Shown here: in pieces, positions 1,750-39,097 of the stretch
Layout of the letters: every line of letters begins with the position of its first letter
Position numbering within the stretch: the stretch's first letter is position 1
DNA from: Limisphaerales bacterium
GTDB taxonomy: Bacteria; Verrucomicrobiota; Verrucomicrobiia; Limisphaerales; SXTU01
Length of the DNA stretch: 43,658 nucleotides
Reading direction: 5' to 3'
NCBI GenBank assembly: GCA_041666725.1
Contig: JBAYGL010000001.1
Span: 1 to 43,658, forward strand
Notes under the pieces: generated by a model
What the model was told of the DNA's origin: nothing
The model's input: only the letters and a program-made list of their open reading frames with translations
Database searches by the model: none
Position numbers and translations under genes: made by a program

Positions 1750-4512
1750 GTGTCTTCCCACGAGGAACAATCCGCCGGCCCGCCGGCCTTCAACCAGGTC
1801 ACGGTCCCGGACCTGTGGCAGCAGCAGGCTGTCACCGCGTTGCGCGCGGGCAAGGACGTGGTCGTTCACGCGCCGACCGGCTCGGGCAAGACGCTTGTCT
1901 TCGAACTGTGGTCGAACTTCGGCAAGCCGCACGGGCAGGCCATCTACACCGTGCCGACGCGCGCGCTGGCGAACGACAAGCTCGCCGAGTGGCGAGCGCG
2001 CGGCTGGCATGTGGGCATCGCCACCGGCGACCTGAGCGAGAATCTCGACGCGCCCATCCTCGTCGCCACGCTCGAGACGCAGAAATACCGGCTCATACGC
2101 GGCGACGGCCCGGCGCTGCTGGTGATCGACGAGTATCAGATGCTCGCCGACGGCGACCGTGGCCTGAACTACGAACTCGCCATCGCGATGGCCCCGCCGC
2201 AGACGCGCCTGCTGCTCCTGAGCGGCAGCGTGGAGAACCCGCACCACATCGTGAAGTGGCTGGAGCGGCTCGGACGCAAGGCGCAGCTCGTCCGGCACCT
2301 GCACCGGCCCGTGCCGCTGGAGGAAGTCCACGCCAACGACCTGAGCGTCCACGTCCCCAGCGAGGTGAAGGGCTACTGGCCGCGTCTCGTGGCAAAGGCG
2401 CTCGCCGACGACCTGGGGCCGGTTCTGATTTTCGCGCCCCGTCGCAAGGAGACGGAAGCCCTCGCCGGCGAACTTGCGCGGTTCCTCCCGAATCACAACC
2501 CGCTCACACTCACAACAGAGCAGAAGACGCTCGTCGGCGAGAAGGTCGCGCGGATGTTGCGCTGCCGTGTCGCATATCACCACAGCGGCTTGAGCTACGG
2601 TGCGCGCGCCGGAGTCATCGAGCCGCTGACCAAGGCGGGGCAGTTGCGCGTCGTGGTCGCCACCATGGGGCTGGCGGCGGGCATCAACTTCTCGCTGCGC
2701 AGCGTTGCGCTGGCGGCGGATTCGTATCGGCGCGATGGCGTGGAGATACCGATCCGGCCTGATGAAATTTTGCAGATGTTCGGACGTGCGGGCCGGCGTG
2801 GAATCGACGAGGTGGGTTACGTGCTGGTGTCGGCCAACGGTGTCCGCCTGATTGACGGTCGTCCGGCCTTTCTCGCGCGGTCGGGCCTTGTGGATTGGAG
2901 CGCGCTCCTGGGGATAATGGGCGCGGCGGCGCAGGCGGGGCTGGACCCGTTCGGCGAGGCGGTGCGCGTGCAGGAACGGCTGTTCACGACGAAGCCGATC
3001 CTGCTGGGCGTGGAAGGCGCGCTGAAAAATCCCGACACGCCCTGCGGCCTCAAGACTGACGGTGAACGCGCCCGGCATGTGCGCAAGATGGTGCGGCAGT
3101 TTCTGAACAGCCGGGGCGAATGGGAGGCGTGGCCCGCGCTCAGGGACGTGCCGGCGGAGCGCGTGCAGGTGATGGAGCCGCTCGGCGAAGGCGTGCTGGC
3201 CATGTTGAAGATGAGCGGGCCGGTCGCCGCCCGCCGGCGCGCGACGACGGCGGACGTGCTCGGTGCGGCCTTGGTGGGGCGAGACTCTGTCGAGCCCCGT
3301 TCCCAGCGCAGCGAGGCGAGTGGAGCGAGCATCTCGGCAGAACCTCACGACCAAGATGCTCGCTTTGCTCGCGCCGACTCCGTCGGCAGTCAGGGCTCGA
3401 CAGAGTCTCGCCCTGCCGAGTCCACGATTCACCTCCGGCCTGCGCTTGCAGTTGAGTCCGCCGTCGAGAAACTCGGCGAAGGCGGGACGCTGGTGAAGCT
3501 GCCGGACGGGACGTTCGCCCGTTCGCTCGCGGTGGCGGACGTGTTGAACGGCCGGCAAATCCTGCTCGCGAAGTGGGTGCGCAAACTGACGGACTGGAAC
3601 GCCCGGCAGACTTCATTGCAGAGCTGGCGCGAACTGGTCGTGCCCGCGCTGGAAAAGTGTTTCTCGGCCGAGAAGACGCCGGTGCTGGCCGTCGAGTATC
3701 CGAAGGCGACGCGGTTGAAGGATGAGTTCGCCGAGCATGTGCCGGAGGTTGGCCTCGGGCCTGTGCGTGCCGTGGTATCGCTCGGCCAGCTCACGCTCAA
3801 GGCCTGTGTGGACGCCCACGGCGTCGCGCTGTGGAAGCCGCCGGAGCGCGAGGTCTTCCCGGAGGACTGCGCGCGCTGCCCCTGCGTGCCGCTCTGCAAA
3901 CAGCTCCCCACCGGCACCGGCGTTGCCACGATCTGGCGGCGGCTCGGCCTCGTGGACGCGGCGGGGGTGCCGACGCGGCGCGGGCGCATCGTGAGCTTCT
4001 TCCACTCCGGCGACGGCCTCGCGGTCGCCGCGGCGCTGGAAGACGAGTCGCTGCCCATCGAGGAATTGAGCTACGAACTGGCGAACCTGCACGCGGGCCA
4101 CCGCTTCGCGAAGGGTGACGCACGCTGGGACGGGCGCATCGCGCTGGCCTGCCAGCGGCTCTTTGGCCCGCAGACTTTCACCGGTTATCTGGACAACGGT
4201 GTGCCGCCGGAATACGGCGCGGGTGCCGAGGAGATCGCGGCGGACGTGCATCGCGACCCGCTGGGTAAGAACGGCTGGACGACGGACTTTCTGGGCATCG
4301 GGGACATTGACCGGATGATCATCGAATGGCGCAGCGTGCTGCGGCAGATCGCGCACGCACCGGACCTGGAATGGCCCCGCTGGCAGGCGCTGAAGGACCG
4401 CGCCAAGGCCATCCTGCGCGAGACCGACTCGCCGACGCTGACGGACCTGCCGCCGCTGGAACACGCGCAGACCAGGCGCGTGAACCACCAGCTCTCGCTT
4501 CGGCGGCACTGA
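1750..4512 (+). CDS. Ski2-like (HelY-type) DEAD/DEAH-box SF2 helicase with ~500-aa C-terminal extension
   Basis: GTG start at 1750. Motifs: I APTGSGKT, II DEYQ, III SGS, ATMGLAAGINF, VI QMFGRAGRRG. The C-terminal half has a Cys cluster (CARCPCVPLC). It contains an in-frame palindromic element at 3274-3416. Confidence 0.85.
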   Translation: MSSHEEQSAGPPAFNQVTVPDLWQQQAVTALRAGKDVVVHAPTGSGKTLVFELWSNFGKPHGQAIYTVPTRALANDKLAEWRARGWHVGIATGDLSENLDAPILVATLETQKYRLIRGDGPALLVIDEYQMLADGDRGLNYELAIAMAPPQTRLLLLSGSVENPHHIVKWLERLGRKAQLVRHLHRPVPLEEVHANDLSVHVPSEVKGYWPRLVAKALADDLGPVLIFAPRRKETEALAGELARFLPNHNPLTLTTEQKTLVGEKVARMLRCRVAYHHSGLSYGARAGVIEPLTKAGQLRVVVATMGLAAGINFSLRSVALAADSYRRDGVEIPIRPDEILQMFGRAGRRGIDEVGYVLVSANGVRLIDGRPAFLARSGLVDWSALLGIMGAAAQAGLDPFGEAVRVQERLFTTKPILLGVEGALKNPDTPCGLKTDGERARHVRKMVRQFLNSRGEWEAWPALRDVPAERVQVMEPLGEGVLAMLKMSGPVAARRRATTADVLGAALVGRDSVEPRSQRSEASGASISAEPHDQDARFARADSVGSQGSTESRPAESTIHLRPALAVESAVEKLGEGGTLVKLPDGTFARSLAVADVLNGRQILLAKWVRKLTDWNARQTSLQSWRELVVPALEKCFSAEKTPVLAVEYPKATRLKDEFAEHVPEVGLGPVRAVVSLGQLTLKACVDAHGVALWKPPEREVFPEDCARCPCVPLCKQLPTGTGVATIWRRLGLVDAAGVPTRRGRIVSFFHSGDGLAVAAALEDESLPIEELSYELANLHAGHRFAKGDARWDGRIALACQRLFGPQTFTGYLDNGVPPEYGAGAEEIAADVHRDPLGKNGWTTDFLGIGDIDRMIIEWRSVLRQIAHAPDLEWPRWQALKDRAKAILRETDSPTLTDLPPLEHAQTRRVNHQLSLRRH
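3274..3416. repeat. family A palindromic element (GTRGGGCGAGACTCYGTCGAGCCC...) located inside the helicase ORF
   Basis: Perfect 21-bp inverted repeat 3277-3297 / 3393-3413 (gggcgagactctgtcgagccc / gggctcgacagagtctcgccc), plus inner 11-bp arms 3324-3334 / 3354-3364. A second copy of the same family is intergenic at 22786-23121. Confidence 0.85.
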
Positions 4513-6073: not shown

Positions 6074-6988
6074 ATGGGATTGTTCTCCAAAATCAAGGAA
6101 GGCCTGCACAAGACCGCCGCCAAGCTCGGCCACGAAATCAAACGCATTGTCAGCGGTTCACCCAAGCTGACGGGCAAGACGCTTGAGGAACTGGAGCACG
6201 CGCTGCTCGGTGCCGACCTCGGCATGGCGATGACCCAGCAGATCCTGTCCGCCGTAAAGAAAGCATACGAATCGCAGGGCACCGCCGGTCTGGATGTCTT
6301 CGCCATCGCGGCGCGGGAGGTGGAACACAGCCTGTCCGCCACCAACTCCACGCTCCACCGCCAGCCGGGGGGCTTGACCGTCGTCTCCGTCGTCGGCGTC
6401 AACGGCACGGGCAAGACCACCACCACCGCCAAACTCGCGCATCTCTTACAGGGCCAAGGCAAGCCCGTCGTCCTCGCCGCCTGCGACACGTTCCGCGCCG
6501 CCGCCATTGAGCAGCTCAAGCTCTGGGGCGCGCGCCTCAAGGTCGAGGTCATCGCCGGTGCCTACAACGCCGACCCTGCCGCCGTCGCGCACGACGCCAT
6601 CACCGCTGCGACCGCACGCGGTGCGAATTATCTGATCGTGGACACCGCCGGCCGTCTGCACACCAAGAGCAACCTGATGAAGGAATTGCAGAAGGTGCAC
6701 CGCGTGATGGGCAAGCAGCTCCCCGGTGCGCCGCATGAAGTGCTGCTCGTCCTCGACGCCACCACCGGCATGAACGCCCTCCAGCAGGCGCGCGAGTTTC
6801 ACAAGGCCGTTACGCTCACCGGCCTCGTCATCACCAAGCTCGACGGCACGAGCAAGGGCGGGATGGTCGTGGCGATACAGAAAGAGCTGGGCCTGCCCAT
6901 CAAGTTCATCGGCGTCGGTGAGCAGCCCGACGACCTCCAGCCCTTCGACGCGAAGCAGTTCGCCGAGGCGCTTTTCAGCGAGAAGTGA
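6074..6988 (+). CDS. ftsY: signal recognition particle receptor FtsY
   Basis: SRP GTPase motifs [15 protein letters not shown] (G1), DTAGRLH (G3) and [10 protein letters not shown] (G4), with C-terminal [12 protein letters not shown]. Confidence 0.93.
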
Positions 6989-8003
6989 CCGGTCGGTTCA
7001 CTGCGTTCATAGCAGATTCCCCGCGCAGCAACCGCTCCAAGTCCGCGCACACCGCCTCGAACGTCCGCGTCTGCGCCTCGTAGGTGAACGAGCCGACGTG
7101 TGGCAGCAGGATGACGTTGTCCAAGTCCTCGAAGCCCGCCTCGTTTGGTGTCCACGCTTCAGCGTGTTCGGGAGCGCCAGTCCGCCTGAAGGCGGGACAC
7201 CGAACTTTAGGCGGCTCAATCTCACGCACGTCCAGCGCGGCACCGGCGAGGTGGCCGCCTTGCAACGCCGCGAGCAACGCCGTTTCATCCACCACGCCGC
7301 CGCGTGAGGTGTTCACGAAGAACGCGCCGCGCTTCATCGTGGCGAAGGTGCGCTCGTTGAACATCCGCTTCGTCTCCGGCGTGAGCGGCGAGTGCGTGGT
7401 GACGAAGTCGGCCTGGGCCAGGGCCTCTTCCAGCTTCGTGCAAAGCGTCGCCCCTGTTTCAGCCAACGTGACATCGCCCGGCTTCACGAACGGGTCGAAC
7501 ACGACGAGCCGCATCCCGAAGACCGCCGCACGCTTCGCCACGAGCCTGCCGATGCGGCCGAACCCGCAGATCGCCAGTGTCTTGCCCGCGAGTTCGATGC
7601 CCGTGCAGCCGCGCCGGTCCCAGCCGCCGGCCTTCGTTGAGCGGTCGGCCTGGGGAATCTTCCGTGCGAGCGCAAGCAGCAGACCGAGCGTGAGCTCCGC
7701 CACGCTGACCGCGTTCGCATCCAGCGGCGCGGTGACCGTGATGCCGCGTTCCGTCGCTGTCTTCAGGTCAATGTTGTCCAGCCCGACGCCCACGCGACCG
7801 ATCCCTATGAGCTTCGGTGCAGCGGCGAGCACGTCCGCCGTGAGCTGCGTCTGGTTGCGCACCATGACCGTGCGTGCGTCGGCCAAAGCGGCCTTCAACT
7901 TAGCCGCGTCCTTCCACAAAGCCGGCTCGCGCACGACGGAGAACTTCGCAGCCAGCACGTCAATCGCCGGCGCTTGCAGGTCTTCGGTGATGAGGATGTC
8001 CAT
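6975..8003 (-). CDS. D-isomer-specific 2-hydroxyacid dehydrogenase / phosphoglycerate dehydrogenase-like (no ACT domain)
   Basis: I prefer the ATG at 8001-8003 (MDILITEDLQ...) because the track's N-terminal extension MDTELRHAKAWTPNF is encoded by REP units. NAD fold GFGRIGRLVA, catalytic motifs NTSRGG, DVREIEP and LLPHVGS. Contains an in-frame REP doublet at 7143-7205. The 3' end overlaps ftsY by 14 nt (convergent). Confidence 0.8.
   Translation of the reverse strand: MDILITEDLQAPAIDVLAAKFSVVREPALWKDAAKLKAALADARTVMVRNQTQLTADVLAAAPKLIGIGRVGVGLDNIDLKTATERGITVTAPLDANAVSVAELTLGLLLALARKIPQADRSTKAGGWDRRGCTGIELAGKTLAICGFGRIGRLVAKRAAVFGMRLVVFDPFVKPGDVTLAETGATLCTKLEEALAQADFVTTHSPLTPETKRMFNERTFATMKRGAFFVNTSRGGVVDETALLAALQGGHLAGAALDVREIEPPKVRCPAFRRTGAPEHAEAWTPNEAGFEDLDNVILLPHVGSFTYEAQTRTFEAVCADLERLLRGESAMNAVNRPVTSR
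7143..7205. repeat. REP doublet (REPIN-like, two inverted 24-nt units) inside the dehydrogenase CDS
   Basis: Unit 7143-7166 is GTTTGGTGTCCACGCTTCAGCGTG. Unit 7182-7205 is the reverse complement of GTTCGGTGTCCCGCCTTCAGGCGG. The architecture matches the intergenic doublet at 39038-39097. Confidence 0.85.
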
Positions 8004-8006
8004 AAA

Positions 8007-8098
8007 GTTCGGTGTCCACGCTTTAGCGTGTCTTAGTTCGGTGTCCACCCTTCAGGGTGTCAGGCATACCGGAACACGCTAAAGCGTGGACACCAAAC
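8007..8098. repeat. REP cluster (three units) immediately downstream of the RAYT gene
   Basis: 8007-8030 GTTCGGTGTCCACGCTTTAGCGTG (forward), 8036-8059 GTTCGGTGTCCACCCTTCAGGGTG (forward), 8075-8098 CACGCTAAAGCGTGGACACCAAAC (inverted). Confidence 0.9.
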
Positions 8099-8101
8099 AA
8101 A

Positions 8102-8719
8102 TCACATCTCCGGCTCATCCCACCCTTTCCCGTATTCCAGAATTGGATATGCCTTCCATGTTTGCTCGGCGAACTCACGCCCCATTCCGGCCAGGTATTC
8201 CTGTGCGCTGGAGAACGGCCAGTCCTGCCAGCGCTCAACGTAGCCATGACGAACCGGATTGTGATGAACGTAGTTTAGCGTCGCCCAGAAATGGGCATCG
8301 TTCCTCATGTAACGCTCCGCCGCCCCGCACCAGACCTGCCGGCCGCGCTGCTGTTCCTCGCCGTTCCACTGGAAGGAAGTCTTTCCGTGGAGTTTCCCCA
8401 ATGCTCCGAGCAGTCCGGGAATGTCGCTGCTTTCAACCAGCAGGTGGTAGTGATTCGGCAGCACGCACCAGGCGTGGACCTGGGCACGACTGGCCTCCAG
8501 CAAGGTCAGCACCATTCCCGAGAATGACTCCATCCGCTCCCCGCTCGAACCAATCCACGGCTGGTGTTCGTAGCAGGCGGCCGTGACGTGATAGCGCGTA
8601 TGCTCCCCGGCACGGTGAGGTGGACGATGCCAGGGCAGACCCTGGTTTTTGCGCCACGCCATGAGTTGCTCCCTTTGATCGAGAGCAAGCTTGCGCCAAA
8701 GATAGGCTGGATTGGACAT
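8102..8719 (-). CDS. rayT: REP-associated tyrosine transposase (RAYT; IS200/IS605-like HUH enzyme)
   Basis: ATG at 8717-8719 (MSNPAYLWRKL...). The longer track ORF would overlap thrC. HUH motif in LPNHYHLLV and a catalytic-Tyr region ATLNYVHHNPVRHGYV. About 205 aa, flanked on both sides by REP units. Confidence 0.85.
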   Translation of the reverse strand: MSNPAYLWRKLALDQREQLMAWRKNQGLPWHRPPHRAGEHTRYHVTAACYEHQPWIGSSGERMESFSGMVLTLLEASRAQVHAWCVLPNHYHLLVESSDIPGLLGALGKLHGKTSFQWNGEEQQRGRQVWCGAAERYMRNDAHFWATLNYVHHNPVRHGYVERWQDWPFSSAQEYLAGMGREFAEQTWKAYPILEYGKGWDEPEM

Positions 8720-8733
8720 GAGCGCGTCTCGGA

Positions 8734-8781
8734 CACCCTGAAGGGTGGACACCAAACGCTCGGCGTCCACGCTTGAGCGTG
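8734..8781. repeat. REP pair upstream of the RAYT gene
   Basis: 8734-8757 CACCCTGAAGGGTGGACACCAAAC (inverted unit) and 8758-8781 GCTCGGCGTCCACGCTTGAGCGTG (degenerate forward unit). It ends 2 nt before the thrC stop codon. Confidence 0.85.
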
Positions 8782-8783
8782 AA

Positions 8784-10004
8784 TCAAATCTTCTCCCATT
8801 CAATCGGCTTCGTGCAGTCCACGCGCGGCAACTGTTCGCGCACGGCCTCGGGATATTTCTGCGCTGCGCCCGTGTTGAACACGACGATGCGTTCGCCCGG
8901 CTTGATCTTGCCTTCCTTGAGCAACACCTCCAACGCGCCGAAGCAGACGGCGGTTTCCGGGCAGAGCGCGATGCCTTCGCGTGAGGACGCGAGTTGCATC
9001 CACTTGGGAATGTCCGCCTCGGGCGTCGCCAGCGCCACCCCGCCGCTCGCGCGCACGGCATCGAGGATCATGAAGTCGCCGACCGCCGCCGGCACGCGGA
9101 TGCCGCTGGCGATGGTTGCGGCATTTTCAAACTTCTTCGCGAAACGGTCGCCTCTCCTGAACGCCTCCGCAATCGGCGCGCAGCCGGTGCTCTGGCAGGA
9201 AATCATGCGCGGCTTCTTCGACGATTTCAGCCAGCCGAGCGCCTCAAGCTCCTGAAATGCCTTCCACATGCCGATGAGTCCGGTGCCGCCGCCGGTCGGG
9301 TAGAGAATCACGTCGGGCAGCTCCCAGTCGAACTGCTCGGCGAGTTCGAGGCCCATCGTCTTCTTGCCCTCGATGCGATACGGCTCCTTGAGCGTGCTCA
9401 CGTCGAACCAGCCCTTCTTCGTCTTGCCCTCGCCGACGATGCGTCCGCAGTCGGTGATGAGGCCGTTGACGAGGAAGGTTTTCGCGCCCGCGAGGAAGCA
9501 CTCCTTCTGGTTGATGACCGGCGTGTCCTCGGGCATGAACACATACGCCTCCATGCCCGCGCGCGCCGCGTAGGCGGCCATCGCCCCGCCCGCGTTGCCG
9601 GCGGTGGGACAGGCGACGCGCCTGGTCCCGAACTCGTTCGCCATCGAGATGGCCATCGTCATGCCGCGCGCCTTGAAGCTGCCGGTTGGGAGGCGGCTCT
9701 CGTCCTTCACGTAGAGATGTTGCACGCCAAAATGCGCCGCCAGTCGCTTTGTTTCGAGGATCGGCGTGATGGTCTCCACCAGCGAAACAATCTTCGAGGG
9801 GTCGCGCACCGGGAGCATTTCGAGATACCGCCAGATGGTCGGTGGACGACCCGCGAGCTCTTTCTTCGGAAACTTCTTCTTGAGCGTGTCGAGGTCGTAT
9901 TTGACCCACAGCGGCTTCTGGCAGGCGGGGCAGAGGTTGTGGACCTTGTCCGCATCGTAACGCGTGATGCAGTTGGCGCATTCCAAGTGGGTGACGAAAT
10001 TCAT
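8784..10004 (-). CDS. thrC: threonine synthase
   Basis: N-terminal zinc-ribbon-like CANC...CPAC, PLP-lysine motif PTGSFKARGM, and GNAGGAMAAYAA. 406 aa. Confidence 0.92.
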   Translation of the reverse strand: MNFVTHLECANCITRYDADKVHNLCPACQKPLWVKYDLDTLKKKFPKKELAGRPPTIWRYLEMLPVRDPSKIVSLVETITPILETKRLAAHFGVQHLYVKDESRLPTGSFKARGMTMAISMANEFGTRRVACPTAGNAGGAMAAYAARAGMEAYVFMPEDTPVINQKECFLAGAKTFLVNGLITDCGRIVGEGKTKKGWFDVSTLKEPYRIEGKKTMGLELAEQFDWELPDVILYPTGGGTGLIGMWKAFQELEALGWLKSSKKPRMISCQSTGCAPIAEAFRRGDRFAKKFENAATIASGIRVPAAVGDFMILDAVRASGGVALATPEADIPKWMQLASSREGIALCPETAVCFGALEVLLKEGKIKPGERIVVFNTGAAQKYPEAVREQLPRVDCTKPIEWEKI

Positions 10005-39037: not shown

Positions 39038-39097
39038 GTTCGGTGTCCACGCTTTAGCGTGCCGTCGCCCAGACACGCTGAAGCGTGGACACCAAAC
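39038..39097. repeat. REP doublet (REPIN-like), intergenic
   Basis: 39038-39061 GTTCGGTGTCCACGCTTTAGCGTG and the inverted unit 39074-39097 CACGCTGAAGCGTGGACACCAAAC. It lies between the GT4 gene and the protease gene. Confidence 0.9.

Follow-up and report, generated by a model that had tools for sequence, protein, structure and literature searches.

The 43,658-nucleotide stretch analysed here (hereafter the window) spans positions 1 to 43,658 of contig JBAYGL010000001.1 (assembly GCA_041666725.1) of a Limisphaerales bacterium. Between positions 8007 and 8781 it contains a gene for a REP-associated tyrosine transposase (RAYT) and, on both sides of the gene, copies of a short repetitive extragenic palindrome (REP). 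The only open reading frame (ORF) of the segment 8004-8783 occupies 8102-8719 on the minus strand and encodes a polypeptide of 205 amino acids with the motifs LPNHYHLL and NYVHHNPVRHG. An earlier note, made from the letters of the window, had recognized in this ORF the HUH motif (NHYHLL) and the tyrosine motif (YVHHNPVRHG) of RAYTs, and both were found to be intact. The predicted catalytic residues are H90 and H92 of the HUH motif (codons at 8450-8452 and 8444-8446) and Y150 (codon at 8270-8272), the tyrosine being located in a Y-x3-N-P helix. These three residues, as well as N154 and P155, were invariant among 39 homologues (57-91% identity).

The polypeptide matched the NCBIfam equivalog model NF047646 (REP_Tyr_transpos) with 80.7 bits (E = 9e-23), a marginal pass of the cut-off of 80, and the Pfam model Y1_Tnp with 20.1 bits, which is under the gathering score of 23. 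Its best match by sequence in the PDB was 4ER8, the E. coli TnpAREP bound to REP (phmmer, E = 2.6e-5, 96 residues). In this alignment N89-H90-Y91-H92 stood opposite HMH, and Y150 stood opposite Tyr115 (position counted from the alignment); no loss of a catalytic His or Tyr was seen, an outcome that would have spoken against a RAYT. An AlphaFold2 model of the polypeptide had a mean predicted local distance difference test score (pLDDT) of 76.6. When this model was used as a Foldseek query, 4ER8 was again the top match (E = 2.4e-6, TM-scores 0.56 and 0.67, 18% identity), and the TnpA proteins of ISDra2 and IS608, members of the IS200/IS605 family, ranked next. Judged by its sequence and predicted fold, the ORF is an intact RAYT gene. 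Its product is an ordinary, well preserved domesticated HUH/Y1 transposase of the IS200/IS605 superfamily, from an uncultured bacterium of the Limisphaerales (Verrucomicrobiota). A look-up of the exact protein sequence gave no recorded entry. Approximately 2,250 homologues were found in metagenomes, and those with a taxon name all belonged to Verrucomicrobiae. Only two weak matches to the family were obtained among 72,556 plasmids. No tnpB gene adjoining the RAYT gene was found among the ORFs of the window or at the conserved locus in relatives, and no second RAYT copy was present in the window; among the sampled loci never were two detected in one genome.

REP units were located with a covariance model for which units from other genomes had served as input (threshold E <= 1e-8). 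The model found exactly nine units in the window, the next-best match scoring 15.9 bits. Three lie on the 3' side of the RAYT gene. The unit 8075-8098 (minus strand, stem CACGC, 41.6 bits) has the orientation of the gene, starts 3 nt past the RAYT stop codon and forms a heterotypic doublet (8036-8098) with its inverted partner 8036-8059 (plus strand, stem CACCC, 41.2 bits). The outermost unit, 8007-8030 (plus strand, stem CACGC, 41.8 bits), has its 5' end 3 nt from the start codon of the downstream dehydrogenase gene. On the 5' side, the unit 8734-8757 (minus strand, stem CACCC, 41.0 bits) runs in gene orientation and ends 14 nt before the RAYT start codon. It is arranged head-to-head with a degenerate unit, 8758-8781 (plus strand, stem CACGC, loop TTGA), which reads GCTCGGCGTCC, carries two changes in its 5' part and scored 29.6 bits, compared with approximately 41 bits for the other units of the window. 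The REPs nearest to the RAYT gene on either side thus both run in the direction of the gene, like the left end (LE) and right end (RE) of IS200/IS608. The remaining four units form two convergent doublets of the kind called REPINs (REP doublets forming hairpins). One, of 63 nt with stems CACGC and CCGCC (7143-7166, plus strand, and 7182-7205, minus strand), is in frame inside the dehydrogenase gene; the other, with two CACGC stems (39038-39061, plus strand, and 39074-39097, minus strand), is intergenic and lies 20 nt past the stop codon of a glycosyltransferase gene.

The number and positions of the units, three of them downstream and two upstream of the gene, had been given in the earlier note and were borne out by this independent model. 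So were the three stem types with paired arms: CACGC/GCGTG was found in six units, CACCC/GGGTG in two and CCGCC/GGCGG in one, all perfectly complementary. The 5' part GTTYGGTGTCC, which had been described as constant in all nine units, was present in only eight, the exception being the degenerate unit 8758-8781. Eight exact matches to this 11-mer occur in the 43.7-kb window. With up to one mismatch there were 12 matches, compared with 1.66 expected from shuffled sequences, and none of 100 shuffles reached 12. A search of the window for the classical GTAG-type REP gave no match, and no Rfam family matching the REP was found. Since nine units alone give weak statistics, the claim of covariation between the stem arms is solid only with a wider census.

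For the census, one genome per species was scanned with a doublet pattern in which both stems were left unconstrained. At least 81 stretches matched, approximately 75 of them in metagenome-assembled genomes (MAGs) of Verrucomicrobiota, Limisphaerales or Pedosphaera. Approximately five of the 81 stretches (Microbacterium, Actinoallomurus, Poribacteria) contained the 11-mers without the REP stem or loop and were rejected as chance matches. The records from Actinobacteria and Poribacteria (L040, L045, L068, L077, L080) show symmetric 11-mer inverted repeats, three of them in Microbacterium, and these might mark another kind of conserved site. Four MAG records labelled Akkermansia muciniphila or Klebsiella sp. 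(L002, L052, L064, L076) carry the Limisphaerales-type REP, and L002 also a RAYT gene; they are probably mislabelled or contaminated bins.

From the loci of approximately 35 related genomes and the window, 197 units were collected by their 5' anchor and loop, without using the stems. A perfect 5-bp stem was found in 169 of them, compared with 45 expected when the 3' arms were dealt randomly. At least eight perfectly complementary stem types occurred: CACGC, CACCC, CCGCC, CCGGC, CAGCC, CATGC, CACCG and CGTGC. Among the 59 distinct units 92% of the cells were paired, as against 68% after shuffling and 25-52% when the partner columns were slid. The covariation score was 0.527 compared with 0.139 for shuffled arms, and no shuffle out of 500 reached 0.527, although this control takes no account of descent among REP copies. 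The paired variation seen in the window is thus real and general. Several stem types coexist in one genome, also around one and the same RAYT gene, and the same five types recur in many genomes. It follows from their coexistence around one RAYT that the variants do not each have their own enzyme.

Covariation was restricted to the three central stem pairs. The two C-G pairs at the ends of the stem, one outer and one closing the loop, hardly varied in sequence, and neither did the TTYA loop or the 10-nt 5' tail GTTYGGTGTC. A pyrimidine was found directly 3' of the stem in 97% of the units and at the next base in 86%; the 3' flank typically begins with TCC, TTC or CTC and then becomes rich in G (e.g. 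8031-8033 and 8060-8062 in the window). A pyrimidine at the first of these two positions holds the stem at five pairs, because a G would pair with C10. By analogy, the two pyrimidines may correspond to the CT at which tested TnpAREPs cleave. No fixed dinucleotide that could mark a cleavage or target site was found 5' of the units, where there was only a weak preference for C at position -1 (57%). The proposal of the earlier note that the structure of the hairpin, and not its sequence, is under selection therefore applies to the three central pairs. It does not apply to the stem ends, the loop, the tail and the 3' pyrimidines, whose sequence is conserved.

Most of the units (166 of 197) lie in 83 convergent doublets with a modal length of 62-63 nt, which is the REPIN arrangement; singlets are also present. 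The 83 doublets contrast with five RAYT genes in the 636 kb of loci, a ratio of approximately 17:1. The REP was also found, in other sequence surroundings, on further contigs of the source sample whose depth is similar. The REP is thus dispersed in related genomes and in the source sample, and RAYT genes are far rarer than REPs in the sampled loci; absence of the repeat elsewhere, or many RAYT copies behaving as an insertion sequence (IS), had been named as findings that would count against a RAYT with its REPs. Apparent excision joints in assembled contigs of the source sample proved to be other REPIN copies located elsewhere in the sample, not deletions. A count of intragenic doublets based on long stop-free frames (39 of 83 "spanned") was uninformative, spurious long ORFs being common in GC-rich DNA.

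For the doublets of the window, folding predictions as single-stranded DNA (ssDNA) gave a single long hairpin each (-16 to -25 kcal/mol, z = -3.2 to -7.9; -16 to -18.5 kcal/mol for 8036-8098 and -24 to -25 kcal/mol for 39038-39097), compared with -4.4 kcal/mol for a lone REP. At the variable stem positions of the doublets, 475 of 498 were paired locally, within their own REP, whereas only 288 of 498 would be paired in the long hairpin. Local pairing was kept and long-hairpin pairing was not, hence it is specifically the small hairpin that is under constraint. Doublets with two identical stems were rare: eight were homotypic, compared with 24.1 +/- 3.6 expected from re-pairing of units within genomes, and so low a number was not reached in any of 5,000 permutations. 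Identical arms were found in only one of the 83 doublets. Doublets may be heterotypic by descent from heterotypic founders, yet many different combinations occur. At position 4 of the tail the two partners usually have C and T, which would give a G-T wobble in the long hairpin of one strand and a C-A mismatch in that of the other; base frequencies at this position are biased in doublets, because the search pattern left out T/T doublets.

Copies of a repeat are related by descent, and for this the shuffle control made no correction. The paired variants could then have arisen by mutation and copying: a few founder units would have been perfected by template-switch correction or gene conversion and then amplified, and the counts would not be independent. 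That the same five stem types recur in many genomes fits types that are old and inherited. Stem and loop differed together between lineages at two orthologous RAYT-flanking sites (CACCC-TTCA versus CACGC-TTTA), a pattern that looks like replacement by another copy and not like stepwise change. We consider this origin of the pairing unlikely. The perfect stems, including the rare types CATGC, CACCG and CGTGC, occur on an otherwise constant background, and only 8% of the cells are unpaired though the units are old enough to differ elsewhere. Moreover, doublets pair locally and not in the long hairpin, and stem mismatches lower cleavage in other REPtrons (PMC8266576).

Selection on the stem, for its part, need not come from the RAYT. 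The hairpin could be kept by a role in RNA, as a stabilizer of mRNA 3' ends or a terminator, or by a DNA-binding host factor, and covariation by itself cannot separate DNA from RNA. In other bacteria most REPs lie downstream of genes, and a function in transcripts has been assumed for them (PMC3733652); the doublet 39038-39097, downstream of the glycosyltransferase gene, shares this location. This possibility appears somewhat less probable than the preceding one. The unpaired 10-nt tail and the loop, which are the most conserved parts of the unit, are needed by an HUH substrate but not by a simple stabilizer hairpin. No T-run follows the stem, the Rfam search was negative, both orientations of the unit occur and a coding sequence contains one of the doublets. 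The single stem mismatches consisted of six G.T/T.G, six A.C/C.A and four A.G, so that G-T wobbles were not in excess over A-C mismatches. A role at the RNA level could coexist with a role in RAYT action, the two not being mutually exclusive.

The history of the locus was followed in relatives. The RAYT gene is located between two genes of the same orientation. The downstream neighbour (6975-8003, minus strand) codes for a D-3-phosphoglycerate dehydrogenase-like protein, identified by PDB matches to PHGDH (E = 6e-67) and by the domains PF00389 and PF02826 in its homologues. The upstream neighbour (8784-10004, minus strand) codes for a threonine-synthase-like protein of the PALP family, and PF00291 genes were found beside the RAYT or the dehydrogenase gene in the relatives L082, L085, L086 and L090. 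The order PALP gene - REP - RAYT gene - REPs - dehydrogenase gene recurs in three contig sets. At this conserved locus the RAYT was 91% (L088), 80% (L089) and 72% (L090-L093) identical to the copy in the window; in L090-L093 the PALP gene was 81% and the dehydrogenase gene 67% identical to the window genes. A CACCC-type REP stands beside the RAYT start codon in the window and in L088, L089 and L090 alike. The divergence of the RAYT tracks that of the neighbouring genes, and the sequence comparison indicates long vertical residence of the RAYT at this locus. The RAYT genes of L088-L093 and all five orthologues at unrelated loci were flanked by REPs on both sides; the more distant orthologues (67-70% identity) are located at other loci with REPs still on their flanks. 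In L091 (2873-3866) truncation has left 143 residues of the dehydrogenase beside the RAYT, and an ORF of 181 amino acids on the opposite strand lies between the two genes.

In three other close relatives (L082, L085, L086) the PALP and dehydrogenase genes are directly adjacent, 58-67 nt apart, without a RAYT gene. In L082 and L085 the gap between them is taken up by a doublet of a classical REP of the GTAG type (GTAGCGGCGCTCTGTGAGCGCC...), unrelated to the REP of the window. The segment replaced is bounded by the 5' ends of the terminal REPs, which face outward. The dehydrogenase was 97.6% identical between L082, which lacks the RAYT gene, and L089, which has it. This implies that the presence or absence of the RAYT gene is a recent difference, or that it was exchanged by recombination. 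The order in which the relatives rank by identity is not the same for the PALP gene and the dehydrogenase, a hint of recombination in this region.

That the element is an ordinary autonomous IS of the IS200/IS605 family, with the flanking hairpins as its ends and the other REPs as solo ends or derivatives resembling miniature inverted-repeat transposable elements (MITEs), is highly improbable: the direct orientation of the two gene-nearest REPs, as in LE and RE of IS608, the fold common to IS608 and ISDra2 TnpA, and the absence from close relatives of the whole REP-RAYT-REP block, bounded exactly by the outward REP 5' ends, as excision or insertion would give, all agree with it, but the same two neighbour genes accompany the RAYT down to 72% identity and diverge in step with it, no second copy (in the window or the sampled genomes) and no tnpB were found, the best matches are RAYT-specific, doublets outnumber the gene approximately 17:1, and plasmids gave only the two weak matches.

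REPINs were also found inside the dehydrogenase gene. The REPIN 7143-7205 adds exactly 63 nt to the ORF and thereby codes for 21 extra residues. Compared with human PHGDH (6PLF), approximately 21 residues are added between EPP and FExxDNVILLPH. Most of the close dehydrogenase orthologues have 320-322 amino acids and lack the insert, and several have the same insert (340-342 amino acids). Filled and empty sites in orthologous genes show that the whole doublet was inserted as one 63-nt unit. Three other orthologues carry a different insert of approximately 21 residues within the same four codons, which at the DNA level is a GTAG-type doublet. Doublets of this type (GTAGCGGCGCTCTGYGAGCGCC...) were located in the close relatives at 3091-3157 and 2237-2287 of L085 and at 1771-1821 of L082. 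In the structural model of the dehydrogenase the inserted segment had low pLDDT and the remainder was well folded, which fits a tolerated surface loop.

We conclude that the locus is very probably a REPtron, with one RAYT gene, inherited vertically, amid its cognate REPs, with the REP dispersed mostly as REPINs and an enzyme that, to judge from the tested TnpAREPs, acts on the folded REP. By analogy with the TnpAREPs of E. coli, S. maltophilia and Marinomonas, the RAYT would bind REPs folded in ssDNA, with replication forks as the probable place, and may read the 5' tail, the loop and the pairs at the stem ends base-specifically and the middle of the stem by shape. Cleavage would take place near the REP, the conserved pyrimidines 3' of the stem being the candidate site, and a 5'-phosphotyrosine intermediate would lead to strand transfer, by which REPINs could occasionally be moved or copied. 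One such event would have placed the 63-nt REPIN in frame in the neighbouring dehydrogenase gene. In small, perfectly palindromic REPs studied previously, a stem mismatch reduced or abolished cleavage, complementary blocks could be swapped with little effect, and one base of the loop was indispensable (PMC8266576); these published results match the conservation pattern of the REP described here. The 5' tetranucleotide of a REP has also been found to be read base-specifically (PMC3479197). Covariation alone does not show that a RAYT acting on ssDNA is the agent selecting the hairpin; for this step the REPtron interpretation relies on analogy with tested REPtrons (PMC3479197, PMC8266576).

Several observations weigh against this interpretation. 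The protein scored only just over the NCBIfam cut-off and under the Pfam Y1_Tnp gathering score. The REP lacks the GTAG/GTGG tag that tested TnpAREPs need for cleavage; its motif is GTTYGGTGTC, with TGTC beside the stem. This does not exclude membership of the protein in the RAYT family, as the tag is a trait of most described REPs and not of the family. When the stem of the E. coli REP was randomized with its shape kept, binding was abolished (PMC3479197), hence reading of the stem by shape only is not universal. No direct sign of activity or of recent movement was seen here, in assembled contigs, which cannot show rare excision. Finally, the genome-wide REP count and the RAYT copy number are extrapolated from a 43.7-kb contig.

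With these observations the REPIN-RAYT (REPtron) system is extended to uncultured Limisphaerales and to a REP devoid of the GTAG tag; current views are not overturned. Intragenic REPs, different REPs at one site of a gene and deletion of a REPtron were already known (PMC3733652). The 197 units amount to a natural mutational scan, in which the three central pairs are free as long as they are paired while the tail, the loop, the stem ends and the 3' pyrimidines are fixed, and from which it can be predicted concretely what a divergent RAYT would read. The dehydrogenase gene and the RAYT locus, each with filled and empty sites, offer clean material on insertion and replacement of REPINs. Of interest to specialists are the non-GTAG 5' motif, the several stem variants per RAYT and the systematically heterotypic doublets. 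A bolder generalization, which we put forward only tentatively and which is rather doubtful, is that one RAYT serves at least five co-resident stem variants kept across many Limisphaerales genomes, that doublets are near-obligatorily heterotypic, and that once-occupied sites, between and inside genes, are re-used by unrelated REPIN families. If true, a rule would act on the doublet, e.g. avoidance of perfect long palindromes or a functional asymmetry for mobilization like that of y and z REPs.

Among the known systems, the Group 3 REPtrons of S. maltophilia, Marinomonas and Pseudomonas (PMC8266576, PMC3686654) share with the one described here a short REP with a perfect stem, a small conserved loop and a conserved 5' motif, and a RAYT gene flanked by REPs. 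In both cases REP classes differ by paired stem changes, as exemplified by the S. maltophilia stems SM4 (CCACGC) and SM5 (CCACCC), and the N-terminal extension over the core model found in our RAYT has also been reported for Group 3 (PMC8266576). In the Limisphaerales system, however, the stem is of 5 bp instead of 8, the loop is TTYA, the motif is GTTYGGTGTC instead of GTAG/GTGG and the host belongs to Verrucomicrobiota. Several stem types surround one RAYT gene, whereas in Group 3 there is one class per RAYT. The RAYT thus resembles Group 3 (Bertels et al. 2017) in REP type and N-terminal extension, a likeness by description only, the sole relative of solved structure being a Group 2 protein.

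That relative, the E. coli TnpAREP (YafM, 4ER8; PMC3333891, PMC3479197), is the best match by sequence and fold, and its HUH and Tyr residues could be aligned with those of the RAYT. The bacterial interspersed mosaic elements (BIMEs) of E. coli contain inverted pairs of REPs of different types, y and z (PMC3479197), as do the heterotypic doublets, and the E. coli REPtron was lost by deletion in some strains (PMC3733652), comparable with the presence and absence of the RAYT gene among the relatives studied here. In contrast, the palindrome of the E. coli REPs is longer and imperfect, contains a bulge that is essential and carries a GTAG tag, and the identity between the proteins is low (18% in the Foldseek alignment). 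With the REPINs of P. fluorescens SBW25 (Bertels and Rainey 2011, PMC3116915) and other vertically inherited REPIN-RAYT systems (PMC5581495) the Limisphaerales system has in common inverted doublets of fixed length (62-63 nt here), the long hairpin, a vertical RAYT of low copy number and the occurrence of singlets. In SBW25 compensation takes place across the two sides of the long hairpin (PMC3116915), whereas here it takes place inside the individual REP, and a doublet usually has two unlike arms.

IS608 and ISDra2 of the IS200/IS605 family have the same Y1 HUH fold, subterminal hairpins in direct orientation around the gene and, presumably, the same ssDNA chemistry. They differ from the element described here, whose gene is syntenic, is present as a single copy in the window and is not accompanied by tnpB, and whose repeats are dispersed without the gene. 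In-frame palindromic inserts that leave genes open are known as intragenic REPs from Opitutus terrae, itself a verrucomicrobium, and other bacteria (PMC3733652), and from the Rickettsia palindromic elements. As in the dehydrogenase gene, related species of Xanthomonas carry different REPs at nearly the same position of recB (PMC3733652). The dehydrogenase gene differs from these cases in that the same loop holds two unrelated REP families, GTTYGG-type and GTAG-type, in close relatives.

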